From positions 1 to 54,596 of IMG/VR virus record IMGVR_UViG_3300017719_000011: a DNA stretch of 54,596 bases. One strand, 5' to 3'. The notes below the pieces were generated by a model. That model saw nothing but the letters and a program-made list of their open reading frames with translations. It was not told the origin of the DNA and did not search any database. The stretch is from a virus. Taxonomy: Duplodnaviria > Caudoviricetes. Position 1 is the first letter of the stretch. Each line of letters begins with the position of its first letter. Both the position numbers and the translations under genes were made by a program. This document shows positions 10,580 through 41,000 of the stretch, piece by piece.

Positions 10580-10771
10580 ATGGATAATGCATTCAAACGA
10601 TCCACGAACAATATGCTAGTTAATTCTGATGTATCAGGATACGCTGCTGCAAAAATTCGTAAAAACAAAGAACAGGAGTATGCGAACTTGCTCCTTAAAG
10701 TAGAAAAACTTGAAACATGTGTTGACAACCTAAAACGTAGAATAGAAGAGATAGAAAACAATGGCAATTAA
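10580..10771 (+). CDS. Small coiled-coil hypothetical protein (VrlC-downstream type)
   Basis: 63 aa. Abuts the upstream stop and overlaps the next start. The pattern R....LVN.D..GY followed by a heptad C-terminus matches the small genes found after VrlC-like genes. Confidence 0.7.
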   Translation: MDNAFKRSTNNMLVNSDVSGYAAAKIRKNKEQEYANLLLKVEKLETCVDNLKRRIEEIENNGN

Positions 10772-12293
10772 CGATATAGATCAATTGACGGTTCAGGCAA
10801 CCTTTGGTACGTGGGTTGATTTGACAAATGAAATCATTACTGAATTAGGTAATGTTGTTACAATGGGTCCTGATGCTGACGAAGGAAATGATAATAGTGA
10901 TGGCATTACTCTTGCGGGACCAATTACAACAAAGAATGTTGTTCAAGGTGTCACCACAAATAGGTTGGCACCATTTAGCGGTAACACTATTGAAATTGCG
11001 GCAAATATTGAATTACAAGATTTCGCTAAAGTGTATCTTTCACATACAGGTATTAATGCCGAGGCGATAGAGTTTAACTATATTGATCCTGATCCTGAAA
11101 ATGATACAGAATATGAAACTTGGAGAATGGGTCCACACACATCACAAGACGGCGATAATAATTCATTTTGGCATGATGAGTTTAAGATCATAGGCAGAAA
11201 TGCTGTAGGCGGCGCTAACGAATCACAACTTATTATCGAACAGGCTTCTGGAGCGACTAAAGCAAAAATAACAGGAACAAACATTGTATTAGATTCAGAT
11301 TTAATTGCTGCTGATTATGTTGCTGCTAGCGCAGCAAAATGGAATAATGCAACAAAGGTTAAGTTTGTCAACACTGTAGCCAAACCAGGTGATGTAACTG
11401 GCTCATTTAGCATTGATGGAAACGAAGCATCAGATCTAGAGTGCCAATTAACAATTGTTGGTGAGGTCGGCGATATAACTGATATTAAACTAGGCACAGG
11501 ATTGATAGGCATAGATGCAGACGGTAATACTATTACTGCTGACGGTAATGGCATAACGACAATTGCTAACACACAACAAATTCAACACTATACACCTGAT
11601 GCTGTAACTACCGCCGCAACTGGTGGTACATTCGTATCTAGAGTTGATAAGGATACTTTCGGCCATGTAACTCAAGTAAGAACAGCAAATGCTGATAATA
11701 GATACATCTTACAAAATCCGAGCAGCAACGCCGCCAGAACAGCAATCAGTGGTTCAGGATTAAGTATTAAAAAAGATGTTAAAGTGTCTTTTGGTGATAA
11801 AGCTACTCCTGGTAGTCAAGCGTCACTGATGTACAATGAGATTAGTGGTTCAACTGATCGTTTTGAAATTGTTTCTCCTGTACACATGACACTAGCTGCA
11901 GATGATAAAATTTATTTTGCGAAAGACGATGCGCTCGCAACTAATAAATTTGAATTCGATGTGGGTACAGGCAACTTTATTGCTACAGGTGATGTTACAG
12001 CGTTTGGTACAGCATCTGATAAATCATTAAAAGAAAATTTTGAACCTATTGAAAATGCCCTTGAAAAAGTTGATGCGATTAATGGTTACACATTTAACTA
12101 TATAGATTCGCCAGAAAAAGGACGAGTTCCTGGTGTGATTGCTCAAGAGTTGGAACAAGTGTTACCAGAAGCAGTATATGAAACTACTGATGGAAAAAAA
12201 GCGGTTAGGTATGATAATACAGTTGCATTACTTGTTGAAGCAATCAAAGAGTTAAAACAACAGGTTGAAGAGTTAAAATCTCAAATAAAATAA
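10761..12293 (+). CDS. Tail fibre protein with C-terminal peptidase S74 intramolecular chaperone
   Basis: 510 aa. N-terminal TFGTWVDLTNEII, fibre segments (GDVTGSFSIDG; DTFGHVT), and C-terminal ATGDVTAF...SDKSLKENF..IENALEKVDAINGYTF...GVIAQELEQVLPEAV...LLVEAIKELK, the S74 chaperone signature. Confidence 0.85.
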   Translation: MAINDIDQLTVQATFGTWVDLTNEIITELGNVVTMGPDADEGNDNSDGITLAGPITTKNVVQGVTTNRLAPFSGNTIEIAANIELQDFAKVYLSHTGINAEAIEFNYIDPDPENDTEYETWRMGPHTSQDGDNNSFWHDEFKIIGRNAVGGANESQLIIEQASGATKAKITGTNIVLDSDLIAADYVAASAAKWNNATKVKFVNTVAKPGDVTGSFSIDGNEASDLECQLTIVGEVGDITDIKLGTGLIGIDADGNTITADGNGITTIANTQQIQHYTPDAVTTAATGGTFVSRVDKDTFGHVTQVRTANADNRYILQNPSSNAARTAISGSGLSIKKDVKVSFGDKATPGSQASLMYNEISGSTDRFEIVSPVHMTLAADDKIYFAKDDALATNKFEFDVGTGNFIATGDVTAFGTASDKSLKENFEPIENALEKVDAINGYTFNYIDSPEKGRVPGVIAQELEQVLPEAVYETTDGKKAVRYDNTVALLVEAIKELKQQVEELKSQIK

Positions 12294-14409: not shown

Positions 14410-17400
14410 ATGGCAATAAAATTTAGTGACTTACAGTTTATTCAATCGGGCAGTTTAGCATCCGATGATGTGTTTGCGGTGACTGACACATCAGAAAACT
14501 TATCATTCAAGATAAAATTTGAAGAGCTTGAACAGGCACTCATAACTGCAAGTACGTTTACTGATCATGATGCTGATATGGTTACAGCATTGAATGCGTA
14601 TGCCAGCAAACCCGCAGCAAGCACAACGCCATTAAATGCTGGTTCTTTGGGTGGTTCAACACTTCAAGGTATCACAAATGCATATCAACAATATGTAAAA
14701 GATAATGCCGCTTCGAGTTTGTCGCAACTCGCAAACACCAGTCAAAACTACGGAGTCGTGAGTCTTGATACAACACTGCAGACACATTCACTTGCAGTAA
14801 GATACACTCAACCTGCTGCGGTTATTGGCGACCCTCCTGTTCTTCAGGGTTATCAAGCGATCACAACTAAAAACATACCTGAAGATACTTCACTGAACGC
14901 AACAAATTTATATTATAGTGAAGAAAAGGTAACAGATTATTTTGATTTATATTTCGGTTCATATTATAATAGATATGGCACAACATTTGATGAAGGTGAT
15001 TTGACAGATAGTTTCTTTGATACTGTCGCCTATGCAGAAAACAAAACTGGTGAAGACGATCCTTTTGGGTTTTCAGCTGTTCCCGGCACAACTGAACGTA
15101 CTGGTCGATGGCTTACAGTTCATAAGGAAGGTGTAATCCCAGGAACCACACCTGAAATTATAAGAGAACAAGCAAACAGATTCCAATCACTACAAAAAAA
15201 TAAAAGCATAAGAATTTATGGCGCAGAAAACGAATCCACAAATTCTCCGCCAACTGATTCGTTAGTTACAACAATTGATAAGTTTGGATTCACGACTGCA
15301 GTTGGACCTGCAGTTATTGATAGGATTTTTAATGCTGAACAATCAAACCTTATTGCCAACGAAGATAAAATAACTACAGTTGATACTAATGGGAATCCTA
15401 TACCTCACGGATTCGTTGCCGGGGAAGAGATTATATATTCAACAAACGGAACAGCGAACACGCCGTCATCCGCTCTTGTAAACGGTGCAGCATATTTCGT
15501 TATTCCATTAGAAGGTGAACCCAATTCGTTTAAAATAGCATCAAGCAAAACAAATGCAACACCTGTCGGCGAAAATGATCCTATACACATAGTTTTACAA
15601 GAAACAGGTGCTGTGGGATCTGATCACATATTTACTCCGCTTGTTGTGCCTGATGGATCCATTCCATTCCAAAGATTGACATACACATGTGCTGAATTTG
15701 ATTTAACGACAGGAAGAGTTTATCCTGCTGATACGGCGGTGGCATTGAACATAGGTCCTCCTGCAACATTCCAGGATACGACTCAAGATGGCGTTGACGA
15801 CATTGCAAATTACTTGGTCAACGATCAAGACAAAATACTAAAAGATTTTGGTGTTGAGAACTTTATCAAGTTAGATTTCAATCATATTAGCCCAAATGGA
15901 ATAGCAACATCTGGTCCTAGTCCTAATAGAGGCATACTAGTATATCGTAGTGTTGGTCAACCAAACAGTGAAGATCCTGAACTTCAAAGCAATGCAACTT
16001 TGTGTGCTGTCCTCGGGCCAAAAGATTTGGAAACAAATTCATGGATTGATTATTTCAATGATGATATTTTAGATTTTTCTAAGAAGCAACAAGCGGATAA
16101 CACCTATCTTCCTGAATACACTGTTCACTTCAAACCACAAGAAGCGCCGATACAATGGCAATTAGGATGGGTAGATAGAACTATTATACAAGTTGTTGAA
16201 ACTGATAACTTTATTAGAATTAAGTTGAGTTCTGCTATCTATGCAAGAACTGGACAAAAAACTGGCATGTGGATTTCGCATAATGACACTAATTCAATTC
16301 GAAATGCAGTATCAGATAATTCCTTGGGTGGAAGAAAGGCGATTCAATTAAATGCTAAAAATTATATAACTGACACAATTGAAGTTCCTGATAACTTTGC
16401 AATTGCAGGATTTGCTTATAATACTAAATTGACAAGATTGCCTTGGTCGGGGTATGCAGGCAATGAGTCAAAAGCAAATATATTTAATAGAAGAGGCAAC
16501 TCAGGTGCAATGTCAAACGTCAGTCTTGTAGGTTTTGATATTGACGGTAACGCAATTAACTCCATAGCATTTGCTGACTCATCGTTACACGGAGGAACTA
16601 ACTATGCTATTAATTGTGGGACCACATCTGACCAAGTATTGATCGATAAAGTTAGAATCTCGCATCCTATTGGCGGCGGCGTGTATGCCTCGTCAGGATC
16701 AAATTTCCGATTGACAGGATCTGAAATTGTAAACTCTGGCGTAACTGATAGACACGTATTTTCACCCTTGGTTGCAGATGGCGGACAAAGCAGTTTCATT
16801 TCCTCTAACAGATTCCAAAACTTCACCGATGCTGTTGATGCATCTATTACTGATAAGGGTGTTGTTGAAGGTAATATTATTGCGGGGTGTGGATCAGGTT
16901 TAGTCGTGTTCGGGTCAAGGTTCATGGTAACATCACCCAATGTTCTTACAGGGTCAGGTGATGAGTTCTTACCTAACCCAGACGCATATAATTCAGAATT
17001 TGATTCGATCAATATTGACTTAACTGCATCAAGCCTTGATGGCGGCATGTTCTTGTCAGGTCCGATGAAGTATCAAGAAAATGGTGATGTGTATGATTTA
17101 TCAAATGCTGAATTAACTTATAGAGTGTTTGCTATTGAAAAAGGAGATGATGGAGAAGAGACGATTTGGGCTGACAACATTATCGCTCCTACTGTAGGCG
17201 GATTGGATGCAGAACCTCAAGATACGATAACGATACCATTCGATCCTACTCCAAGCGGCGCTACAATAAGTGTCGCACCGATCAATGCAATCACATTTAC
17301 ATCAGATCATGGCCTTACAACTGGCGATCCTGTTAAGTATGTCTCTACGGAAGCGCCTGCTGATCAATATTCTAGCCTCGACCCACTCAAGACATATTAT

Positions 17401-18474
17401 GTGAATGCATTAACGTCAAACGGAATTGCATTATATGAATCGCAAGCAGATGCACTAAATAATGTTACCGGCAATAGGGTAACATTGGCAGCGGATGCAG
17501 GAGCAGGTGCAAACCACTCAATAGTAAGGTCTGTATATTTGAGACTTAAGTCAGGTCTAAACTCTGACAACTTAAAATCTGAAGGAGGATTCTCGTTCGA
17601 CATTTCACCAGAAAGTGTTTCACGAATCAAAAGTTCAGATGGCATATATTCATACAGCTATATGTCAGGTAAAAAACGTGCAGGCGGAATTCAAACTATC
17701 ACTGATGCAACAACCTTTACGCCGATGGGTGCATCAGCATTCGGTAGCGATGGCGCAGTCGATGTAGAAGTTGAAACTAAAGGTTTGGGATCATCTGCTA
17801 AGATAACATTATCATATACAGGTTCTACGGGTGCAGTTGTTGCAACAGTTTCTGACTTCAAAGGAATTGATTATGCGTCTGGCGATACAATATCTATTCC
17901 TCGTCAAACAATAGCAACTGCTTTAGGTGTATCTCTTAGTGATGTTGTCACGACTAACATATTTAACGACTTTGTCGCTAAGGTAAATACGATACAAAGA
18001 AATGTGATTCATCATTTAGATAAAGATGGCAACCCTACTGCAAGTTTAGACAATGTTAATCATGTTGGATTAGGGTGGTCAGCATCTATCAGACAATACT
18101 TATCACCTGCTGGCATCATTACAAGCACAGCGAGTGATATTGATAGGTGGAGCAATCAACAAAGTGATGCTGAAGGATTACATGCAATTTATACCGTTAA
18201 AGTAAAAGACTATAAATACTTAACAACAGGAAGGAAAGTAAAATTCACACAAAGCGGATTAACTCCTCACATACAATTCTCGCCAGGGATAGGTGCCGAG
18301 CAATACGGTGTTATTCAAAATATTACACCAGTAGGCGCTGAAGCTGAACTTGAAATTAGATGGGGTAATGCAAACGCCAATGATGACAGCGGCAACCCAT
18401 CAGCAACTGACGGATTTGGCGGAACATTGGAGATAGAAGACGTTTTTGTAATCGCAACCGGAAGGATTAAATAA
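14410..18474 (+). CDS. Large tail/appendage protein with right-handed beta-helix (pectate-lyase-like) region
   Basis: 1354 aa. N-terminal IKFSDL...DDVFAVTD...KI fibre-type start. Beta-helix-like segment NVSLVGFDIDGN...VLIDKVRISHPIGGGVYAS...ISSNRFQNF...VVEGNIIAGCGSGL (~16300-16960). Two HGxxxG-YYV modules. Confidence 0.6.
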   Translation: MAIKFSDLQFIQSGSLASDDVFAVTDTSENLSFKIKFEELEQALITASTFTDHDADMVTALNAYASKPAASTTPLNAGSLGGSTLQGITNAYQQYVKDNAASSLSQLANTSQNYGVVSLDTTLQTHSLAVRYTQPAAVIGDPPVLQGYQAITTKNIPEDTSLNATNLYYSEEKVTDYFDLYFGSYYNRYGTTFDEGDLTDSFFDTVAYAENKTGEDDPFGFSAVPGTTERTGRWLTVHKEGVIPGTTPEIIREQANRFQSLQKNKSIRIYGAENESTNSPPTDSLVTTIDKFGFTTAVGPAVIDRIFNAEQSNLIANEDKITTVDTNGNPIPHGFVAGEEIIYSTNGTANTPSSALVNGAAYFVIPLEGEPNSFKIASSKTNATPVGENDPIHIVLQETGAVGSDHIFTPLVVPDGSIPFQRLTYTCAEFDLTTGRVYPADTAVALNIGPPATFQDTTQDGVDDIANYLVNDQDKILKDFGVENFIKLDFNHISPNGIATSGPSPNRGILVYRSVGQPNSEDPELQSNATLCAVLGPKDLETNSWIDYFNDDILDFSKKQQADNTYLPEYTVHFKPQEAPIQWQLGWVDRTIIQVVETDNFIRIKLSSAIYARTGQKTGMWISHNDTNSIRNAVSDNSLGGRKAIQLNAKNYITDTIEVPDNFAIAGFAYNTKLTRLPWSGYAGNESKANIFNRRGNSGAMSNVSLVGFDIDGNAINSIAFADSSLHGGTNYAINCGTTSDQVLIDKVRISHPIGGGVYASSGSNFRLTGSEIVNSGVTDRHVFSPLVADGGQSSFISSNRFQNFTDAVDASITDKGVVEGNIIAGCGSGLVVFGSRFMVTSPNVLTGSGDEFLPNPDAYNSEFDSINIDLTASSLDGGMFLSGPMKYQENGDVYDLSNAELTYRVFAIEKGDDGEETIWADNIIAPTVGGLDAEPQDTITIPFDPTPSGATISVAPINAITFTSDHGLTTGDPVKYVSTEAPADQYSSLDPLKTYYVNALTSNGIALYESQADALNNVTGNRVTLAADAGAGANHSIVRSVYLRLKSGLNSDNLKSEGGFSFDISPESVSRIKSSDGIYSYSYMSGKKRAGGIQTITDATTFTPMGASAFGSDGAVDVEVETKGLGSSAKITLSYTGSTGAVVATVSDFKGIDYASGDTISIPRQTIATALGVSLSDVVTTNIFNDFVAKVNTIQRNVIHHLDKDGNPTASLDNVNHVGLGWSASIRQYLSPAGIITSTASDIDRWSNQQSDAEGLHAIYTVKVKDYKYLTTGRKVKFTQSGLTPHIQFSPGIGAEQYGVIQNITPVGAEAELEIRWGNANANDDSGNPSATDGFGGTLEIEDVFVIATGRIK

Positions 18475-18480
18475 AAAAAT

Positions 18481-21400
18481 ATGTCTAGTTTAACGAATAT
18501 CAATAATAATACACGGGTAGTTAATGTAGGTAGAACGACCCCAGTTGCACCAGGACAACAGCCATCATCGAAATCGATACCGGTTGTTCTTGCTAGTGAC
18601 CAAACTGCTATTCCTGTAGAAGAACAGAACAAGGTTCAATCAGAAGTTTCTTTGTCGCTTTTGGGTATTCCACGAGCAGAAGTCGCTCTTGGTATTTTCG
18701 CAGACGTAAATACATATGACGTAAACCCATCAGAGTGGTCGTCAAGTCCTCAATATTATAACACAGGTCATGGTATCAAACATTTGCCTAATGAGGCAGG
18801 TGCATTGGTTGAAGCGCCTCGTGATCAGTTCGCAGTATTGACATCTAAGCGTTTCTTCAGATACCAACCAGGTCGTGTATCTGCTGCTACATTTGGTATT
18901 AAAAGTTCTGTGTCGACTGCTGATTTCGCATTGAATCCTGTAATCAGAAAGTACGGCATTTTTGATAATTTTGACGGTTATTATTGGGAAACAAAACAAT
19001 CAGGACAAGGTGATAACTTTACATGTGTTCGTAGAACGCAATCAATGCTTAAGTTCCCAACATCACCTTTCGGATTGCCATCAGAATTAATGCGCAAACC
19101 TTCAGGTGTGCAACAGGATACACCTGTTCCTTATGAGCAAACTGATGACTATCGTGCTGTCGGTAAAGAGGGCATTGAATTAAAAGGTAAATATTTTGTT
19201 CGTGAAAGACAAATATTGGCAGATTACGGCGCAACTGTTGGCGAAAATGCTTGGGATGCTGCTATTGCTAATAATGGTGCGCTTGATACATATTATCAAA
19301 CACTGTCTGGCGATGCTGCGTATGACTTCAAGGACAAGTGTCATCGTGATGTAACATTCATGTTCAAAATGATCATGATGGATCTTGAGTGGGGCAGTAA
19401 TGCTCACACAAGACTAAACACTAAAAATTATTATACAGGTTTGTTCCCCGCTTATCCTGGCGGCAATGATCCTGCTGAACTTGAAATCGAATTGCACCTT
19501 GAAGCATTAAATATTCTTACTTCTGTTGCAGGATTACCTGCAGGTTCAGGTACCGCAGTCGAAAAAATTGGTACATTGTATGATGTATTCTTAAAGAATA
19601 ATGCTGATTTAGATGCTGCCGTAGGAAGCGATGATGGATTCTTTGTAAGGATTGCAAAAGAGCAACCAGCAACTGGCGGAACAGAATCAAGAACAGGCGC
19701 TACTAGAGTTTTCCAAAACGAAGGGTATAAACTATTTACTGGTAGCGGTACCGGTATGTCCTTTGGTGACAAAAAGGTAATTGACACATTATTTGATGCA
19801 AGGAAGCATTATTGGTCATATTTTGTTTCATCATTTAAACCAACATTTGCTAACATTAACAGTATTTCTGCAGAAGCAAGTATCTACTCCACAGGAATAA
19901 AACAAACATACACGTTCCGTGGTGCAGCTAATTATTTGCCGACTAATACAGACGGTTCACCTGCATATAACGAACAATTGATTGGTCAAGAATTGTCAGG
20001 AGCTGATTATCCGTTTGCACCTGGTGATAATGTTGGCGCCGTATCATTAACCGAAATTGATGCTGTTGCTCTTAATGAGTTTTACAGAAATATCAAATAT
20101 AAGTGTGCAAGGGATCTTGAATATATTATCACTGGTTATAAGAATGATATTGCTGGTGGCGGTAATGCTGAAACAATTTACAATGCTTCAATGTATTATA
20201 AGGCATCTGGATTATCAATCTTTACGCAAACAGACGCAGGAACACCTAGCGATACAACCATTCCTAGGGAAATCGAAAAGCACAAACATTTGCGTAAAAT
20301 GATACATGATGATTTAAGTGAAGCAACCGCTGCTATAGATTTCGGTAATCAATCCGCAGCACGAGAAAGATTAGAAGAATTATCAACTATTATTGTTGAC
20401 AACTTTACGACAGAGACGACAGAAGGTGCTAATTTAGGCAACAGAGGATTTGCGGGCAACATTATTGCATTCCGTGATGGTTTGTTGATGGTTCACGCTG
20501 CTGTGAATGATCCTAATCTGATGAAAGAAAGGAAAAAGATATTAGCAACATATAAGGTTGCACGAACTGATAGTCAACCTACAGTATTTAAACTCGCAGA
20601 GGGTGGCGTAACATTTGGACAGAAGGTTAGGGTTACAACACCTACTGCTGAAACCGAAATTTCAACTAGCACTTCGGCATATAAAAGTTCTGATGGCACA
20701 ATAATAAATCAAAATGAGGCAACAGTACCTTCTGATGCAAAATTAAAAGCACATCCATATGATGCAATATATACTGTTTCACGAGTATATGGCCCAACAG
20801 GTTCAGAATTTAGTTTGCAAGATCAAGACGGAGTTGATGTATACGCACATAGAGACAATACAGATGGAACAGATGGAAGCGGTTCAACTGATCCAGTAAA
20901 CACTTTGAATACAGAAGAAGTTAGAATTGAAACTGTTGTTCCGTTTATAGGTGATAACATCTATAGTTCAGCAGTTTATCGAGATGCAACTACTCGTCCT
21001 GAAGGCACTGTTCAAAACATATCTGGTCAAAGTGTTCAAACACCTTTCACTGAAGGTTCTGACACGTTCCCGATTGGTATGCAATGGCCGTTAAAATATT
21101 CATCGACAGGTGATATTAATGATGGTGTTGCAAACTTCATTGGGCATATCGACACTTCATTAAGTCCTAAGGATTCAAATCAAATTGAAACAATTAGGAA
21201 ACAATATGACACGATAATCTTTAATCCTGAATATATTAACTGGATTAAGAATAATGTTAAGCCAGAGTTCTGGGGTGTTTACGAATATCGTGTTCCACGT
21301 TCACGTTTCAGTCATGATAAACTAGATGGAAAAGTGAGTCGAAGAGTTTACAGTGATTTGGCAACAGGTCCTTCCGGAATTGTACGTCCGGGTATGGATG

Positions 21401-22845
21401 TTGTTGATGAAGCAGGTTTAACTCAGGAAGCTATTTCAGAATATGAATTTGACTTCACTAAAGTAACGATGCTTAAAATTGAATTCTCGTGGTATGGTGC
21501 GGTAGGTGCATTGTTCCTTGCATATGTTCCAATCGGTAACGGTGAAGCACGATGGGTACGAGTACATCACCTAAGAGCATCGAATCAGTTGAAGATTGCA
21601 TCTCTTGGTAACGCAACATTGCCGATCACATACAATGTATTCGGTGGCGGCAGTCCTTTACAATTAGGTGATGGTGAAAATGCACAGCAAAACTATTCAT
21701 CAACAAGTCATAACATTGTTAAGTACGGTGCTTCGTATTACATCGATGGTGGTGACCGTGGTACTGTTCGTCTATACAGTCATAACAATAATGATGTTAT
21801 TCCTGGATATGGTAAACAGTGGGAAGTGTTAGACATTACCGGCAGTCAAGCTACAGGAACTACTACCCCAAGAGGATATGAAATTTCTTTGACAGGCATA
21901 AATACTATTCACGGTGGCGCAATAAACATACCTAATGATAAAGTATATTTCATGGGCGCTGAAGTGAAGACGTCTAACCCATCAGATACAGGCATTAAGG
22001 TTGTGTGGGTTGAAGGTGATGTGATTACTTTAAGTAAGCAACCTACTGGTAACGGATTGATCTTGATTCCTGATCGTGCAAACCTTGTTTACGGTCTTGA
22101 AACTAAAGACGTAATTTACAGCACAGTCCAACAAAACCCTGTAAGAAATAGAGTACAGGTTTATCCTACTAAGTTGTCAACAGCAAACTTACAGGATAAT
22201 CCTGTGCGATTGCGAATGAAAAGGACACCATTGTTCCAAACTAATGTTGTGCCTTCAGGCGGCCCATTGACACTTAATGGTGATTATATAGTTTCTCCTA
22301 CAAATGATCCAATATCAATTGACGCTGGAGATGCCGGGTACTTAGCAAATGGCGAATCTCTTTATGGGTGGTTCAAAGGATTGATAGGTGAAGTTGAACC
22401 TGCTCCGATATTCGGAAGATTGTATAAAGCGTCTGGTCAATACTACTTTGAAATACTAGAAACATATAATGAATCTGTGACATTAATAGATAACTGTAAC
22501 TTCTTGCCTGATGCAAGATTCTTTTATCAATCAGATAGCAATGTTTCGACTACGTCAAATGAAACAGCGCAGTTGCAACCATTAGCGGATACGCTAACAT
22601 CTATTAATGTTGTTGCGAATACGGTTGTTCCGATACCTAACACAGGAACAAATATTGCAACCTTGTATATGACAGGCGGAACAGAGCAAGTAGATCTTAA
22701 TACATACTTTGATTACAACAAAGAATATTTGTCTTACCCATTAACAGATGAAGCAGAAACACTATATTTTGCAATCGACTCGGATCAAAAGATTCAAGAA
22801 GATGAAAATGAAATAGCAATAGGATTGACATGGGAAGAACAATAG
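18481..22845 (+). CDS. Large virion structural protein (FRYQPGR family, paralog 1) with two KCxRD helical domains
   Basis: 1454 aa. Motifs SKRFFRYQPGRVS, KIEFSWYGAVGA, GNGEARWVRVH, KYGASYYIDGGD are shared with the next gene. KCHRD at 19336 and KCARD at 20101. A structural role is inferred from context. Confidence 0.6.
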   Translation: MSSLTNINNNTRVVNVGRTTPVAPGQQPSSKSIPVVLASDQTAIPVEEQNKVQSEVSLSLLGIPRAEVALGIFADVNTYDVNPSEWSSSPQYYNTGHGIKHLPNEAGALVEAPRDQFAVLTSKRFFRYQPGRVSAATFGIKSSVSTADFALNPVIRKYGIFDNFDGYYWETKQSGQGDNFTCVRRTQSMLKFPTSPFGLPSELMRKPSGVQQDTPVPYEQTDDYRAVGKEGIELKGKYFVRERQILADYGATVGENAWDAAIANNGALDTYYQTLSGDAAYDFKDKCHRDVTFMFKMIMMDLEWGSNAHTRLNTKNYYTGLFPAYPGGNDPAELEIELHLEALNILTSVAGLPAGSGTAVEKIGTLYDVFLKNNADLDAAVGSDDGFFVRIAKEQPATGGTESRTGATRVFQNEGYKLFTGSGTGMSFGDKKVIDTLFDARKHYWSYFVSSFKPTFANINSISAEASIYSTGIKQTYTFRGAANYLPTNTDGSPAYNEQLIGQELSGADYPFAPGDNVGAVSLTEIDAVALNEFYRNIKYKCARDLEYIITGYKNDIAGGGNAETIYNASMYYKASGLSIFTQTDAGTPSDTTIPREIEKHKHLRKMIHDDLSEATAAIDFGNQSAARERLEELSTIIVDNFTTETTEGANLGNRGFAGNIIAFRDGLLMVHAAVNDPNLMKERKKILATYKVARTDSQPTVFKLAEGGVTFGQKVRVTTPTAETEISTSTSAYKSSDGTIINQNEATVPSDAKLKAHPYDAIYTVSRVYGPTGSEFSLQDQDGVDVYAHRDNTDGTDGSGSTDPVNTLNTEEVRIETVVPFIGDNIYSSAVYRDATTRPEGTVQNISGQSVQTPFTEGSDTFPIGMQWPLKYSSTGDINDGVANFIGHIDTSLSPKDSNQIETIRKQYDTIIFNPEYINWIKNNVKPEFWGVYEYRVPRSRFSHDKLDGKVSRRVYSDLATGPSGIVRPGMDVVDEAGLTQEAISEYEFDFTKVTMLKIEFSWYGAVGALFLAYVPIGNGEARWVRVHHLRASNQLKIASLGNATLPITYNVFGGGSPLQLGDGENAQQNYSSTSHNIVKYGASYYIDGGDRGTVRLYSHNNNDVIPGYGKQWEVLDITGSQATGTTTPRGYEISLTGINTIHGGAINIPNDKVYFMGAEVKTSNPSDTGIKVVWVEGDVITLSKQPTGNGLILIPDRANLVYGLETKDVIYSTVQQNPVRNRVQVYPTKLSTANLQDNPVRLRMKRTPLFQTNVVPSGGPLTLNGDYIVSPTNDPISIDAGDAGYLANGESLYGWFKGLIGEVEPAPIFGRLYKASGQYYFEILETYNESVTLIDNCNFLPDARFFYQSDSNVSTTSNETAQLQPLADTLTSINVVANTVVPIPNTGTNIATLYMTGGTEQVDLNTYFDYNKEYLSYPLTDEAETLYFAIDSDQKIQEDENEIAIGLTWEEQ

Positions 22846-25800
22846 ATGCCAAGACAGGTAAAAATAGGATTTGATAAGACTCCGTCACCGTTAGTCAAAC
22901 AATTTCCGCAATTAGTAGATATTAGAGGCACCCCTCTTTTTGACACAGCAGGTAATCCGCTTGTGACAGAAGATGGGGCGTCTTTAGCGAGTTTTAATAA
23001 TTCAGAAAATTCATTATCAAGTTTTGTTGCGAACAAAGGTCGTAACGAATTTGTTGCAGTTGAAGAACAATTTCCTAACGAATCCGAAGTAAGTTCTACG
23101 TTACTGGGTGTACCTCGTGCTGAAGAACAATTAAGTTTGTTTTCTGATGTTTCGACATATGGATTAGACAGATCAAACTGGAATTATTACACAGTAAGTT
23201 CAGCCGGTACGCCTTCAACTTGGTATAATAGAAAGCATCCGACTTTCGGAAATCGTGGGCCTGCACGATTCTATGAGTCAACTGACGAGCAGGCACTGTA
23301 TTTAAAATCCTTCCCAACGCAATATACGTATCCTGGTCACCCTAGATCATCATTATTGAATGCACCCGACTATACATCAGGTGGCCCTGCTGGTTATTTC
23401 GGCAAATATCTAAAATTTCTTGCTCTCGGCAGATGGCTGTTTGAAGTATGGAAAGATATTGATTTAAGATTTGCAGAACGAAATTTTATCTCTGATTGTA
23501 TAACATTTATTGATAGTAATCGTGATCCTATACCATTCTACGGACCTGATGGCGGTCCTAATGATGAACCTAATGTATGGAATGCGAATACGGGCACTTT
23601 CAAAACTCAAAGTCAATGGCGTACAGTTATCTACACTTCTGATGAAAACCCTATTCAGGCGAGTCGTAAACATGAAGAAATTGCAATGGCGCAAATTGAA
23701 AATTGGTCATTATTCTATTTAAGAATTAGAAATGATACCGATTCGTATCCGATTTATAAGTACAAAGGATACATGTACGAGTTTAAAACTGAAACCGATC
23801 TAATAGATCCTATTCCTGGAGTGGGACCGTACAGTTTGATGCCAGCATTTTGTGATCAAGATAATAGTAGACCTGGGGGATCAACAAACAACGGAACTAC
23901 AGGTATACTCGAAAGCAGAAAATCTTTTAGATATCAACCTGGTCGAGTTTCAGGTTTCACATTTGGATTGCGATTAAAAAATAATCTTTCATCTAATGCT
24001 GATAAGATTGAATGGGGTGCCGCAAACCAAACTGACCAATACATGTTCCAGGTATCAGGTACAAAGTTTAATATCGTTAGAAGGTCAACATTGGAAATTC
24101 CTGTTGAAGTTCTTGAAGATCCTGCAGGTATGGATTTAACTGAGCAAGATCAAACAGGACCTGAAATTCCTCCTAGTTTGGATGCATCCCAACCAATGTA
24201 CACATTGACAATTCCTCGTGATAAATGGAATGGCGATCCTTTAGATGGTTCAGGTCCTTCAGGTCATATTATAAAACCTGAAAACGTAACCATGTATAAA
24301 ATTGAATATTCTTGGTATGGTGCGATTGGTGCTAAGTTTTATGCATATATTCCTTTAGGCAACGGTGAATGCAGATGGGTAAGAATGCACACTCTTATTC
24401 TTGAAAATAAACTTGCTGCTCCCGTGTTGGCAAATGCTGATTTCAAATTTAGATATGTACTAAACAATGCAGTTACATCAAACCTGACTGAACCAACATA
24501 CATTTACAAATACGGATCATCGTATTATATTGACGGAGGAGATGAAGGTACTGTTACCATTAATAGTGCAACATCGCCAACAAAATTATTTTCTAGTGCT
24601 GCAATTAAAGGTGCAGTATTAGGTATTCATCCCAAAAAGAAACTTTTTAATTCGTTCGGAATAAGCAATAGTGATTCAGCAGGAGCAGATGCATCATATG
24701 ATGGGATTGACAATAATAAGAAATTATATCCCGTAACACTTAACGTACATTCAGACAATGACATTAAGGTTAATATACAAGAGATCACTGTATCGCCTGA
24801 TGGTCATCATGGTTCGAGGTCAGTTGATTTATCGTGCGGCAGTTTATATTCTAATGACTCATTTGCGAAAGATATTACTTTTAATATTATCGAAGGTAAG
24901 TCAAAAATTAGTATAACTGATGATTCGACTAATACACTAAGTTATTTGGATGTCGGCGCAAAGGTTATAGGAGATGGATTGTTTAATGTTTATACAAAGA
25001 CAATTAATTCGGGAACTCAAGAAAGCGAAATCGGAAGAAAAACACGGTATGAATTTTCAGATCAAGAGTTGAATGATTATATCAAAAAAGATGGTACACT
25101 TATTGATTTTTCTAATGAGGCTACGGCATCACAAGTAGTATTTTCTACTAAACTAGATTCGTTCAGAAATATTGTCGCATCTGATGTTCCTATATCAGCA
25201 AACACGTTTAAAGTGCACTTCCTAAACCCAAATTCTTATAGCGGCGGATATTTTAGAGATTTCTGTATAGGTGTGACCCCGGATGTGCCGTCTGAGATGT
25301 CTGATGAAAACGGATCGTTCTTAAATTTTGGTCCTGCAGGTGCAGACGGGCTTAGAGTTTATCCTACAGATGAACCATCAGATCCTACTGGCGTATTCCA
25401 AATAAGAAATACTCTTCACGAAGAGTGGACAAATCATAGCCATATTTTAGATTTAGCAGACGGTGCTGATGTAGCTGAATCTTTTGTGCGTGGGCCTGAT
25501 AGATTTGAACAAGATGAGAGAGTAAGAGGCGCTGATTTGCCCTTTGCATACCAAATTTCACCTGGGCGGTATGCAACTAAAGGCGTTTTAAGCAGTGTTC
25601 TGTTCAAAGTTCGAACTACAGGTTACAGTATAGAATCAATTGATCAACTGAACATTCCTGCTGATTTTGCTGCTGATTCATATAGAGTAGTATTTACAAA
25701 CGGGTCGCAAAACTTTCCTCCGATTGAAGATAAGACAATTCGTGTCGCAGAGGTTGGGGTTGGTGACGTATCTACAGGATATGTATATGCATCTAAACCC

Positions 25801-26529
25801 ACACAAATTTTACTTGACCCGGCCGATACAGAAAGTTCAAGACATGTTGTTTATATTGAACCGCCTGAAGGTTTAACCGATTCACAGTTACAAGCACGAA
25901 CAACTCAGTTGTTGTCAATACAATCAGGTGGAGAGATACAAGGTAAAGTTGTATCAATGGAATCCGATAATGTATTGTATAACCCGGACAATCCGGACAA
26001 TGGTAGACAAAGTGTCTCAAGATTTTTGCGACAAGACGTATTCCAATTTAATGTACAACCATTATATCTGTTCTTTGGCATGATGCATGGAAGTCGAATA
26101 AATAATATTATTGTTGAAGAAATCACTGAGAAAGGCAGATCGACACATGTGCCAAATTTCTTAGGGCATAATTTATCGCCAGGATTTGCTGATAAATCTA
26201 ATGTGACTTTAGTGTCTGATTTAAATGTTTCATCGTCAAATGCTCCTAGCAACTTTCAGAGCGAAGACAGATTATCTAGTGCAAATTATGATACTTCAAC
26301 AACGAATCCTGTCAGTACATTAGGTGAAACACTATTTTCATTTTATGTTGGCGAAAATGAATCTGTTAAGTTTGATTTAGATAATATTTTTGGCGCAGAC
26401 AGAAAATTCTTGACTCCAGGATTGTACAACAATAAAGCGATTTACTTTACAGTTGAACCTCTAGAGGGATTAGATGGCAACAACGAAAATGCTAATGTGC
26501 AAATGACTGTTACAACTAAGGAACAATAA
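22846..26529 (+). CDS. Large virion structural protein (FRYQPGR family, paralog 2)
   Basis: 1227 aa. ATG immediately follows the upstream TAG. Motifs SRKSFRYQPGRVS, KIEYSWYGAIGA, GNGECRWVRMH, KYGSSYYIDGGD. Confidence 0.6.
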   Translation: MPRQVKIGFDKTPSPLVKQFPQLVDIRGTPLFDTAGNPLVTEDGASLASFNNSENSLSSFVANKGRNEFVAVEEQFPNESEVSSTLLGVPRAEEQLSLFSDVSTYGLDRSNWNYYTVSSAGTPSTWYNRKHPTFGNRGPARFYESTDEQALYLKSFPTQYTYPGHPRSSLLNAPDYTSGGPAGYFGKYLKFLALGRWLFEVWKDIDLRFAERNFISDCITFIDSNRDPIPFYGPDGGPNDEPNVWNANTGTFKTQSQWRTVIYTSDENPIQASRKHEEIAMAQIENWSLFYLRIRNDTDSYPIYKYKGYMYEFKTETDLIDPIPGVGPYSLMPAFCDQDNSRPGGSTNNGTTGILESRKSFRYQPGRVSGFTFGLRLKNNLSSNADKIEWGAANQTDQYMFQVSGTKFNIVRRSTLEIPVEVLEDPAGMDLTEQDQTGPEIPPSLDASQPMYTLTIPRDKWNGDPLDGSGPSGHIIKPENVTMYKIEYSWYGAIGAKFYAYIPLGNGECRWVRMHTLILENKLAAPVLANADFKFRYVLNNAVTSNLTEPTYIYKYGSSYYIDGGDEGTVTINSATSPTKLFSSAAIKGAVLGIHPKKKLFNSFGISNSDSAGADASYDGIDNNKKLYPVTLNVHSDNDIKVNIQEITVSPDGHHGSRSVDLSCGSLYSNDSFAKDITFNIIEGKSKISITDDSTNTLSYLDVGAKVIGDGLFNVYTKTINSGTQESEIGRKTRYEFSDQELNDYIKKDGTLIDFSNEATASQVVFSTKLDSFRNIVASDVPISANTFKVHFLNPNSYSGGYFRDFCIGVTPDVPSEMSDENGSFLNFGPAGADGLRVYPTDEPSDPTGVFQIRNTLHEEWTNHSHILDLADGADVAESFVRGPDRFEQDERVRGADLPFAYQISPGRYATKGVLSSVLFKVRTTGYSIESIDQLNIPADFAADSYRVVFTNGSQNFPPIEDKTIRVAEVGVGDVSTGYVYASKPTQILLDPADTESSRHVVYIEPPEGLTDSQLQARTTQLLSIQSGGEIQGKVVSMESDNVLYNPDNPDNGRQSVSRFLRQDVFQFNVQPLYLFFGMMHGSRINNIIVEEITEKGRSTHVPNFLGHNLSPGFADKSNVTLVSDLNVSSSNAPSNFQSEDRLSSANYDTSTTNPVSTLGETLFSFYVGENESVKFDLDNIFGADRKFLTPGLYNNKAIYFTVEPLEGLDGNNENANVQMTVTTKEQ

Positions 26530-38053: not shown

Positions 38054-41000
38054 ATGTCAACTATTAAGTTAAAAAGAAGTTCTATTCAAGGAAAACGGCC
38101 TATAGTTAGTAATGATATTACTAATGAATTAGATCTGGGCGAAATCGCAATTAATACGCATGACGGCAAAATGTTCATGCGTAGAGATGAAGGCGGAAAT
38201 GTTTCTTTGCATGAAGTGGGAAATCCTGGTGAAACACGAAATGTGTTATATGTTTCTTTGTCAGGCAAACTAGGAAATAGTGGTAAATCATTGGCTGATG
38301 CTGTTGATACGATTGATAAAGCGCTTGAATTAGCAACCCCAGTAACAGTTTCTATAGTTTTCGCAAACATTGACGTCTCAACTTCATCGTTTTTAAGCGT
38401 TGGTCATCCTTTCGTCACAGGTGATGCATTAACATATTCTAGAGGTGTTGGTGGATCTTGGGCATCATTAGTTGATGAGCAAACATATTATGTAAGAAAA
38501 TTATTCGATCATCCGACATCTGATCACATGTTTCAATTATATGAAACAGAAGCAGCGGCATTCGAAGGTAATCCAGCAAACGCCAAATCGCTTGACCCTG
38601 CAACCCCATCAGGGACTAATCACACATTAACAAGAAAAACAGAACAAACAACTATTTTTGTTAAAAGCGGAACATATGAGTTGGATAATACACCTCGTTC
38701 TGGCGCACCAATGGGCGGTTTACTTGTTCCTAAGAATGTATCTATTGTGGGAGATAACTTAAGAACAACGAAAGTAAAGGGTAAAATAGCGGGCAATGAT
38801 TTATTCTATGTTCAGAATGCATCATACCTTACAAATATGACTTTCATCGGCATGCAAGCAAGCTTGGGTGTTAATCCTCGGCCCCCTGCTGCCGCATCGT
38901 TTCCCCCTATTGCACTACAGGAAGGTCAAGTTCCTCAAGTAATATCAACAAGTCCTTATGTTGAAAACTGTACAGCGTTTAATACAACAGCAACAGGTAT
39001 GTTAATTGACGGAAGTTTGACCCGTGGATTAAGGTCGATGGTATCAGATTCGTTTACGCAAATTAATGCAGGCGGAACAGGCGTTCACATTCTTAATCGT
39101 GGATATGCTCAACTTGTTTCTATTTTCACAGTTTCATGTGAACATGCTGTTTTATGCGAATCGGGCGGACAATGTTCGTTGACAAACTCAAATGCATCGT
39201 TCGGAACATTTGGGTTGAAAGCGACAGGAGCATCAGAAAACCTTTATTCTGGCATAACAACAGATAATGCCGAACCGTTTGGTGAGTATTTTGAAGTGTC
39301 ATCACCATCATCACCAAAATACGGTGATGCATTTTATGTTGAAGGCGTAAGTCGTAAATTAGTCACTAAATGTAGTCGTGATGTTGGTATTATTGTTAAT
39401 GCTGTTGCTAACGACTTAGTTTTAAATACAAACTATAATTCATCGTATGCGGGAATCGCCTATCAACGAGCAGATGCTTTGCCGTCAGGTCAAGTTTCAC
39501 CGACTGCCGCTGCTTTATCTGAAACAAAAAGATTAGTTGGCGAGTTATCGAATGTTCAAGCACATGGTGCTTCTAAAGCAACACTAGATGCAAATTTCGA
39601 TTCGATAATTAATATAATTAATAACGGCACAGTCAGCACAAGTGAACCTGGTGATAGTGTTGTTCCTGCATTAACACTTAATAACACTTTAGGTCGTGCC
39701 ACGAAATATGTTGACGGGGCAGGACTTTTAGTTGATAACAGAAGTGCATTAGCGACACATTTGCAATCAAATATCGCTGCAACCAATCCAGGATTAACAT
39801 ACGATCAAACCAAATGTGAAAGAGATGTCAAATACATAATAGATGCATTGTCCTACGACTTAATTTATGGCGGAAATTCTGCAACACGAACTGCTGCAAA
39901 AAGTTATTTCGTAGGTGCTGTGAGTGAATTGCCTACGCAAGCACAGAAAGATGCGACAGCAACCGCTTACACAGCATTAGCAAATTTTGTTGAAGATGTT
40001 GTCACAGGAAATGCACCCAATCCTGATTATGGATTAACGGCATCATTTGTGTTTAATTATACAGGCCATTCAGATGTTGCACTTGAAGCAAAAAACCTTG
40101 TATTAATTATTCAATCAGTAATAGAAGACGATGATCTTGGAGGATTGCCGACTGAAATATTACCTGATTTTTCTGCAGCGTCAGATACAACAAAGAAAGA
40201 CATTAGAACACAAATTATTTCTGCTGAAAGAGATCTTAGATTAGGGACAACAGATTTTGTTGTTGCAAATACTGATATAGGCACAAACGCTCATTATTCT
40301 ATAGAATCATTTAAATCGTCTATAAACTTCACAGAAAAAGATTATAACGGATACGATTTATTACAAATAACTGATATTCCTAATAATGTGTCGGTTGCGA
40401 ATAGTACGATTTCTGGTTTGCAACGCACTTTAACTGATGATGCAGGGAATGTCGATTCGTCATTGAATATAGGGCATGGATTGGTTCAAGGACAACCTGT
40501 GAGATATAATGTCAGTGTCGGCGGAACACCGATACCGGGATTGACAGCGGGACAAGTTTACTATGTTGTATATGTCGATGATGAAACAATTAAACTTGCA
40601 ACAAATCCTGAAGCAACAGCAATTGAAACATTGAGTAGCGCATCAGGAACAGGAACACATACGTTTACGCCGAAATTCTTTTATAATGCAACTAAGTGTC
40701 AACGAGATGTGGGATTAATAGTTGATGCTGTTGCAGACGATGTTCTTTTGAATACTAATTTTAATTCTATTTACACAGGTGTGTCATATCAAAGAGCAAG
40801 TGCGTACGCTACTGTAACAAATACTGATCAAAAGAATCCTACATTATCATCAATGCTTGATGTTAAGCGTCAGTTGACACAAATTGATGATGTGAATGAG
40901 GCATCTGTTAATGCTATCAAATCATCAATTGATAGAGTTGTGGGAATATTCCTAAATGGGACAGGCACAGGTGAAAGCGTTTTAGATAAACTTCTTTTCC

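Follow-up and report, generated by a model that had tools for sequence, protein, structure and literature searches.

Two KCxRD segments lie in a virion structural protein

The window analysed here is the entire IMG/VR virus record IMGVR_UViG_3300017719_000011, a stretch of 54,596 nucleotides (54.6 kb) with an estimated completeness of 30%, and its content consists mostly of large structural genes. One of these, at 18481..22845 on the plus strand, encodes P0001, a virion structural protein of 1454 amino acids (aa) assigned to the gp120 type (phrog_1645) by its homology to gp120 of phage S-TIM5. Within it lies a cassette of 426 aa (P0001 aa 236-661; window 19186..20463) with two phycobiliprotein-like domains, delimited by the S-TIM5 alignment and modelled with AlphaFold. 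Copy 1 (aa 236-390; 19186..19650), a phycobiliprotein-type globin domain according to structure matches and comparisons of hidden Markov models (HMM-HMM), has its motif K286-C-H-R-D290 at 19336-19350; it is followed by an inter-copy linker (aa 391-486; 19651..19938) that is partly of low confidence in the AlphaFold model, and by the divergent copy 2 (aa 487-661; 19939..20463), recognised by HMM-HMM and BLASTP, in which a helix bearing K541-C-A-R-D545 (20101-20115) precedes three further helices. Both segments start exactly at the bases, 19336 and 20101, where a first-pass annotation made from the letters of the window had placed them.

Four more copies are found in P0002, a tail-fibre-like protein of 1397 aa (38054..42247, plus strand) identified by its motifs, its model and its matches to the PHROGs. 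The motifs are KCSRD (39368-39382), KCERD (39812-39826), KCQRD (40694-40708) and KCRRD (41165-41179), with the cysteines at aa 440, 588, 882 and 1039. The window's 19 open reading frames (ORFs) of at least 150 aa, 17,578 aa in total, contain six C.RD motifs and no more, and all six, two in P0001 and four in P0002, are KC.RD; from residue frequencies, 0.19 C.RD and 0.0076 KC.RD would be expected by chance.

The six copies are 16-22% identical overall, and K, C, R, D, D(+14), N(+20) and Y(+30) are invariant, so the first-pass observation that C, R and D are kept in every copy despite low similarity elsewhere is accurate. BLASTP of P0001 against P0002 gave two motif-anchored matches (E 3e-6 over 71 aa and E 5e-6 over 84 aa), the second of which pairs copy 2 with P0002 aa 874-951. 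With hhalign, the two P0001 regions, taken from a 27-orthologue alignment, were compared with a profile built from 250 repeats of tail fibres: copy 1 matched with Prob 97.3% and E 1.8e-11 over 60 columns, copy 2 with Prob 98.1-98.3% and E ~1e-14 over 94-95 columns, and the two copies matched each other at E 5.5e-12 over 92 columns. The likeness thus extends over 60-95 columns and is not limited to the pentapeptide.

A two-domain cassette interrupts a gp120-type scaffold

The closest cultured relatives of P0001 are the gp120-type 'virion structural proteins' of the cyanophages S-TIM5, S-TIM61, S-TIM66 and S-TIM54 (genus Aurunvirus), and weaker matches occur in Synechococcus phage S-CBS4 and in Cylindrospermopsis phages. 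P0001 matches phrog_1645 at E 3.3e-26; a megablast of its gene against cultured phages gave no DNA-level match. S-TIM5 gp120 (1058 aa) aligns by BLASTP to P0001 aa 14-235 (50% identity, E 1e-62) and to aa 921-1454 (34%, E 1e-71), with a short anchor at aa 662-681 ('RDGLLMVHAAVNDPNL', E 0.001). Because this alignment stops at aa 235 and resumes at aa 662, the cassette was placed at aa 236-661. For the C-terminal part of the scaffold, the ESM Atlas returned unnamed viral clusters only, and no structure.

P0003 (1227 aa; 22846..26529, plus strand) is an adjacent paralogue of the P0001 scaffold, to which it aligns at P0001 aa 118-217 and 933-1100. The two genes stand in tandem with zero spacer, the stop of the first ending at 22845 and the next ATG beginning at 22846, and the cassette is present only in P0001; P0003 has no C.RD motif and no HMM match to the domain. 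P0003 runs from VRRS to LTIPRDKWNGDPLDG in about 40 aa, whereas P0001 has about 750 aa between the same anchors. The first-pass annotation had treated this whole stretch as inserted; the spacing of the anchors is right, but the size of the insert was slightly overstated, since S-TIM5 gp120 already resumes at aa 662-681 and about 270 aa of the stretch are the scaffold's own variable middle.

When 5.8 billion proteins were searched with the cassette, 35 of the 8000 candidates scored reached E<=0.001, most of them orthologues of 1270-1590 aa, and both K-C-x-R-D motifs are invariant in all 27 aligned cassette orthologues. Among 46 gp120-type proteins, a set biased by having been retrieved via the insert, 40 have two copies, three have four, and one each has none, one and six; in P0035, four copies occupy the same insertion site. 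The complete genomes of S-TIM5 and S-TIM54 hold no domain copy anywhere. We regard it as almost certain that a two-domain cassette was inserted into the variable region of a gp120-type structural protein. The proposal that the domain is a mobile cargo module on virion scaffolds, made in the first-pass annotation, is supported at the sequence level by the variation in copy number (0-6) and by the copy-free orthologues of S-TIM5 and S-TIM54.

Sequence profiles point to the phycobiliproteins

The lead to the identity of the domain was P0036, a distant fibre-like match with eight C.RD motifs and a precomputed Pfam label, 'Phycobilisome protein'. It passes PF00502 with 27 bits (cut-off 22.2 bits) over profile positions 20-138 of 155, and 18 of its 21 matches at E<=10 among PDB sequences are phycoerythrin beta or C-phycocyanin alpha, its motif cysteine aligning with Cys84 in 'KDKCARDIGYY'. 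A precomputed PF00502 match is also attached to 21 of the 120 P0002-repeat homologues listed.

A profile of the six window copies, searched against PDB sequences, matched C-phycocyanin alpha in 26 of 26 cases (best E 0.027). When the profile was enlarged to 49 rows (the six window copies and one stretch from each of 43 other proteins) and searched against 177,635 PDB sequences, 49 matches were obtained at E<=10; phycobiliproteins filled the first 38 places, 23 with E<=0.001, and the first unrelated match was a pilin at E 0.25. The best match was phycocyanin alpha 6jpr_A (E 2e-5), aligned over residues 32-104 with the motif cysteine on Cys84. The family logo, F.YD..KC.RDVGYIIDAV..DL.YGGN..S..AG..YY, has the GY after RD and the GG turn in common with C-phycocyanin alpha, while Asp+14 (99%) and Tyr+30 (93%) are specific to the phage family. 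These results indicate that the domains are very probably distant homologues of phycobiliproteins.

Predicted fold of the domains

The AlphaFold model of the cassette, built from the 27-row alignment, reached a predicted local distance difference test score (pLDDT) of 77.8 and a predicted template modelling score (pTM) of 0.82. The linker falls below pLDDT 50 at model residues 162-188 and contains short strands at 241-271 and a helix at 198-216; this helix (P0001 aa 433-451) may belong to copy 2. In a VIA-align search of 48,161 chains, allophycocyanin, ApcE and phycoerythrin chains took ranks 1-7 (Z 12.8-10.5, root-mean-square deviation (rmsd) 2.4-3.0 Å, 117-132 residues), where by the tool's own note a Z of 11-14 is reachable by helical models from arrangement alone, without kinship. 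All seven alignments fall on model residues 1-154, which correspond to copy 1, and the best of them is with allophycocyanin 8or7_A (Z 12.8, rmsd 2.4 Å, 125 residues). Photocobilins (8j2y_B and 8j2w_B, Z 9.9-10.5) and globin-coupled sensors came next after the phycobiliproteins.

A model of P0002 aa 385-720 (pLDDT 72.9) retrieved the same top families. Its residues 164-307 (aa 548-691) superimpose on 8imk_G (Z 12.8, rmsd 2.0 Å, 116 residues) and on ApcE 4xxi_A (Z 12.5). Since both models rank the same chains best (8or7_A, 8imk_G, 4xxi_A, 5aqd_M and 1b8d_A), the domains of the two scaffolds superimpose on the same solved chains. The early description of the segments as one globin-like domain carried on two scaffolds agrees with these results: the P0001 copies are linked to the P0002 repeats by HMM-HMM comparison, and the best matches of both models have a globin fold, phycobiliproteins first and globin sensors after them. 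In a Foldseek search of the cassette model against the PDB, 35 of the 44 rows listed were phycobiliprotein or phycobilisome entries, most with a probability of 0.7-0.98, and no row reached E<=0.001, all E-values lying above 0.3.

The low-rmsd structural alignments start at phycobiliprotein residue 33-34 and the profile alignments at residue 32; two alignment rows of the P0002 model reach chain residues 2-5, at rmsd 6.3-7.5 Å. The domains thus appear to be without the N-terminal X-Y hairpin. As judged from the models, P0001 copy 1 and the P0002 copy are predicted to have a phycobiliprotein-type globin core fold.

Conservation of the C-x-R-D site

Phycobiliproteins bind their chromophore through CXRD, according to Rockwell et al. 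2023 (PMC10151467), and the same source describes the globins BBAG-1 and BBAG-3, which have CXRD, as binding bilins without lyases. In phycobiliproteins the motif cysteine covalently bonds the bilin, and the Arg and Asp hydrogen-bond it. An HMM census of the phage family found 1476 domains in 182 proteins, 1389-1391 of these domains spanning the motif. Of the latter, 1366 retain C, 1356 R, 1385 D and 1338 (~96%) the complete C-R-D, figures that are somewhat flattering because the HMM was built from motif-selected segments and favours motif-bearing copies. C-x-R-D is the most conserved feature of the family, the rest of the domain showing about 20% identity. Just two cysteines occur in the roughly 1400 aa of 12 of the 46 gp120-type proteins, and in P0012-P0014, for instance, both of them lie within KCxRD. 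By analogy with phycobiliproteins, ligand binding at the C-x-R-D site, which the first-pass annotation had proposed without naming a ligand or a protein family, would fit this pattern. Heme was set aside as the ligand, the family logo having no conserved His.

A 335-kb contig binned as Neomarinimicrobiota, which may be a giant phage or a prophage-bearing piece of chromosome, encodes a fibre-like ORF of more than 2500 aa with two canonical CxRD copies and two degenerate ones without C, R and D.

Distribution among phages

A cassette search of 1.84 billion representative proteins returned 147 at E<=0.001; the largest number of matched stretches in a single protein was 26, in one of 6382 aa. When two P0002 copies were searched by tblastn against 50,697 cultured phage records, 79 matched, all named Synechococcus, Prochlorococcus or 'Cyanophage', and the matches are annotated as tail fibre, short tail fibre or structural protein. 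When another 15 T4-like cyanophage genomes were searched with the profile, 13 proved to have the domain as well.

A degenerate DNA pattern located 16 loci in species-representative prokaryote genomes, 16 of 16 confirmed by HMM and all on marine or aquatic contigs binned into metagenome-assembled genomes (MAGs) of many nominal phyla; a search of prokaryote genome contigs with one copy as query found no relative. Since the MAG contigs might be mis-binned cyanophage DNA, they were checked for psbA; it was clear only on a 194-kb 'Synechococcus' contig, and a psbA-type gene is present somewhere in an Acidimicrobiaceae MAG. Because the other contigs may come from cyanophages or from other sources, the restriction to cyanophages is stated for cultured phages, among which the family is, by sequence searches, cyanophage-specific.

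Bilin genes, cpeT and light-dependent adsorption

Six domain copies are present in G001, which at 114 kb (67% complete) is the largest related contig. It also encodes a heme oxygenase (54 bits) next to a PcyA-like bilin reductase (66 bits), with overlapping stop and start. These two genes are at 34.9-36.1 kb and the domain genes at 73-74 and 92-95 kb, about 37 kb apart. In this contig's locus L010 (246-2067), three genes stand in a row, for a cell-wall hydrolase, the heme oxygenase and the PcyA-like bilin reductase; with the NCBIfam PcyA model the reductase reaches 89 bits, well short of the equivalog cut-off of 206, and its assignment to PcyA is putative. No heme oxygenase and no bilin reductase were found in the complete genomes of S-TIM5 and S-TIM54, and no heme oxygenase, bilin reductase or cpeT in the window, a 30% complete record.

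In 22 complete cultured cyanophage genomes, the domain and CpeT (PF06206) are both present in 14; the domain occurs without CpeT in two (S-ShM2 and P-SSM7) and CpeT without the domain in none, and both are absent from six (P-SSM2, P-SSP7, S-TIM5, S-TIM54, S-SM2 and S-SSM7). A hand-computed one-sided Fisher test gives ~4e-4 for this co-occurrence, a value that ignores shared ancestry and includes five genomes known to be domain-positive when chosen; without these five, the counts are 9/2/0/6 and the value is ~2e-3, again ignoring shared ancestry. Five genomes have a full-length CpeT match (S-PM2, Syn1, S-RSM4, S-CAM1 and S-WAM2), and in each of them cpeT lies at most 3.3 kb upstream, on the same strand, of the gene for a domain-bearing giant fibre. 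The gene order in S-PM2 (NC_006820, 162500-178500) and Syn1 (NC_015288, 18500-34000) is cpeT, a 2OG-Fe(II) oxygenase, the giant 'short tail fiber protein' and gp12. In the S-PM2 RefSeq record, 16 tRNA features (168556-173383) lie inside the coding sequence of the giant fibre (165928-177267), which looks like a clash of annotation coordinates.

We also compared the domain with published adsorption behaviour. S-PM2, P-HM1 and P-HM2 need light for adsorption. According to Liu et al. 2019 (PMC6628666), P-HM2 and P-HM1 do not adsorb in the dark, P-SSM2 adsorbs there less than in light, and light makes no difference to P-SSP7. The domain profile matches in five places in P-HM2, five in P-HM1 and nine in S-PM2, and in none in P-SSM2 and P-SSP7, a comparison of five phages that represent at most three independent lineages. 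The partial light effect in P-SSM2 needs another cause. The link of the domain to cpeT, bilin genes and light-dependent adsorption is suggestive only.

A putative bilin-binding module on the virion

Taking these results together, the reading that we favour, and that we consider on the whole probable, is that the KCxRD segments are divergent members of a phycobiliprotein-homologous globin family, inserted as a cassette and binding a bilin. For its last element, that the domains are predicted to bind a bilin on the virion, we incline only a little towards yes, by analogy with the phycobiliprotein site. In an infected cell, each domain would take up phycocyanobilin or phycoerythrobilin, made by host or phage enzymes, on its cysteine, either by self-catalysis as in ApcE and BBAGs or via a lyase, and the virion would then bear pigmented modules at its periphery. 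More speculatively, absorbed light might change the conformation of the fibre or baseplate and so gate adsorption. That adsorption is light-gated through the domains seems to us rather unlikely; slightly less likely still is the full scenario in which virions carry their own bilin photoreceptors, phage cpeT and bilin genes partly serve them, and the pigment makes adsorption light-dependent.

Several observations weigh against bilin binding or against the identity on which it builds, in addition to the limits given above with the Z scores, the Foldseek rows, the census and the co-occurrence counts. Pfam gave no PF00502 match at E<=0.1 in P0001, P0002 or P0003, and a six-frame PF00502 search of the window gave nothing even at E<=10. 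Searched singly by phmmer against the PDB, each P0001 copy found only spurious matches, to antibody 'YYCAR' frameworks and designed Pizza repeats, and both copies have lost the family-typical post-motif residues G+5, D+9 and A+10. In P0001, the structural matches all concern copy 1. Twenty-three of 1389 copies detected by the same HMM have no Cys, and a C-x-D-D variant class (e.g. 'NCIDDVVDLLEAVADNLAYGGN') stands beside canonical copies in the same proteins of MAG-binned marine contigs; it follows from both that the fold survives without the full triad. CpeT was not found in the window, in S-TIM5 and S-TIM54 or in five related IMG/VR contigs, although its absence is not established for the window's phage because the window and these five relatives are incomplete fragments. 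S-ShM2 and P-SSM7 have the domain without CpeT, and heme oxygenase and a bilin reductase are present in P-SSM2, a phage without the domain. Nor is the link to cpeT straightforward, since T-type lyases are described, where PMC10452541 treats them, for Cys153/155 and not for Cys84. Finally, we know of no report of coloured cyanophage particles.

The strongest alternative, which we hold to be possible but doubtful, is that the domain descends from phycobiliproteins, has lost pigment binding and now serves as a rigid helical bead, an apo-globin spacer that lengthens or decorates fibres and the baseplate periphery; C, R and D would be kept for folding or packing, for instance through an Arg-Asp salt bridge and a buried Cys. 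The long tandem arrays, which resemble structural repeats (up to the 26 stretches in 6382 aa), the Cys-less copies and C-x-D-D variants, the divergence of the P0001 copies around the site and the failure to find cpeT or a bilin gene in the window's 30% would all suit such a spacer. However, packing alone hardly accounts for an exact bilin-binding triad in about 96% of copies at about 20% identity elsewhere. Cysteine is otherwise nearly excluded from these extracellular proteins, the family occurs, in cultured records, only in cyanophages, and it co-occurs with cpeT, often adjoining it; all of this argues for the bilin-binding reading over a spacer.

It is quite improbable, in our estimation, that the globin pocket was re-used for a host surface molecule, heme or a metal, as a module for host recognition. 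The position of the domains in tail-fibre, short-tail-fibre and baseplate-module proteins, copy numbers that differ between close relatives as in host-range modules, and the globin sensor domains among the next-best structural matches would be consistent with such a role, but the conserved residues are those of the bilin site and not the heme-ligating histidines of globins, and receptor-binding tips usually vary most at their binding site, which is here the most conserved part. The remaining explanation, unrelated amphipathic helices sharing a pentapeptide by chance or convergence together with a generic helical-bundle likeness, could appeal to the single-copy searches, the weak Foldseek E-values and the Z of ~13 that helical models reach by arrangement alone, but it is close to refuted by six KC.RD motifs where 0.0076 were expected, HMM-HMM E-values of 1e-11 to 1e-14 over 60-95 columns, the 38 top profile matches with their Cys in register and the passing of the curated PF00502 cut-off by the family member P0036.

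Cyanobacteria and red algae use phycobiliproteins as antenna subunits; the non-antenna relatives of these proteins, the BBAGs and photoglobins, have been recognised only recently. No account of phycobiliprotein-like domains in structural proteins of phages turned up in a literature search of full texts, supplements not covered. What is new here is what the domain is and which ligand it is likely to bind, the exact boundaries of the cassette, the restriction to cyanophages among cultured phages and the correlations with cpeT and light-dependent adsorption. The particle of this virus of marine cyanobacteria may carry a pigment and perhaps sense light. If bilin binding holds, a phage particle would for the first time be seen to bear a pigment-binding module, and the family would be a large virus-confined phycobiliprotein branch with a conserved chromophore site. 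The less likely full scenario, with bilin photoreceptors that make adsorption light-dependent, would also explain why phages of Prochlorococcus, which has no phycobilisomes, carry pigment genes, and how darkness can prevent the adsorption of S-PM2, P-HM1 and P-HM2 whether or not the host photosynthesises. The benefit of bilin genes to Prochlorococcus phages has been called 'unclear' (PMC2984593); this benefit and the mechanism of light-dependent adsorption become testable in domain-bearing cultured phages such as S-PM2, P-HM2 and Syn9. In the window itself, the module is seen to move from one virion scaffold to another that is unrelated, the two being a fibre and a gp120-type protein.

Gene neighbourhood in the window

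The P0001 gene sits in a baseplate and tail-fibre module, its neighbours matching baseplate wedge and tail fibre PHROGs. The first ORFs of the window match baseplate wedge PHROGs, the ORF at 10761..12293 tail fibre families, and the last ORFs head-tail connector families. The run of plus-strand structural genes is broken at 32524-35454 by the sole large minus-strand ORF, of 976 aa, which has no PHROG match. In P0002, the N-terminal part (aa 250-420) matches tail-fibre PHROGs and is combined with the globin domains. The protein also has small repeats of the pattern G..V.Y....GG....GL..G..YYV (window 38054-39300 and 41400-41560), similar to some in the ORF at 14410..18474; one of them (aa 1123-1167) gives a sub-threshold match to Pfam E1_FCCH.

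Comparison with known systems

The scaffold of P0001 is that of S-TIM5 gp120 (phrog_1645): homology extends over 220 aa at the N-terminus and 530 aa at the C-terminus, and both genes have a neighbourhood of large structural genes, while S-TIM5 and S-TIM54 are without the cassette. The domain family itself is present in the giant 'short tail fiber protein' of S-PM2 and Syn1 (T4-like gene cluster 734), with four HMM domains in S-PM2 (three with CxRD) and five in Syn1 (four with CxRD); the annotation of the giant fibre in these two records mentions no globin or phycobiliprotein domain. This protein is a different scaffold of 3779-4017 aa, which adjoins gp12 and lies two genes downstream of cpeT.

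Phycobiliproteins (PF00502) share with the phage domains a globin-type helical core and are their best matches in both sequence and structure; common to both are the K-C-x-R-D-x-G-Y helix, with the cysteine in register with Cys84, and a G-G turn 18-19 residues later. They differ in being free-standing subunits of 160-180 aa in phycobilisome discs, whereas the phage domains are embedded in virion proteins of 1400 to 6000 aa. The X-Y hairpin by which phycobiliproteins form alpha-beta pairs is unmatched, the phage alignments starting at about residue 32-34. The phage domains have the invariant Asp+14 and Tyr+30 and no phycobilisome context, and the window's own proteins stay below the Pfam PF00502 cut-off. 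We therefore describe the phage domains as phycobiliprotein homologues, which are not members of that group in the functional sense.

The nearest architectural analogue is ApcE, in which a phycobiliprotein-type bilin domain is likewise part of a large multidomain protein and whose chains are among the top structural matches (4xxi_A, Z 11.4 and 12.5; 7eyd_19, 7sc7_BD and 9wg7_N2). ApcE attaches its bilin without a lyase. It has one such domain, N-terminal and followed by linker repeats, and belongs to the phycobilisome core, whereas the phage proteins have from two to more than 20 copies in tandem.

BBAGs, photoglobins and photocobilins are, like the phage domains, non-antenna relatives of phycobiliproteins, and BBAG-1 and BBAG-3 are described as keeping CXRD (PMC10151467). 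BBAGs, compared here by description only, are small cellular proteins encoded beside heme oxygenase and bilin-reductase genes, while the counterparts of these genes in the largest related contig lie about 37 kb from the domain genes; the phage domains also differ from photocobilins in being without a B12-binding partner domain. With these differences, BBAGs and photocobilins may be the nearest functional analogues of the domains carried by the virion proteins of these phages.

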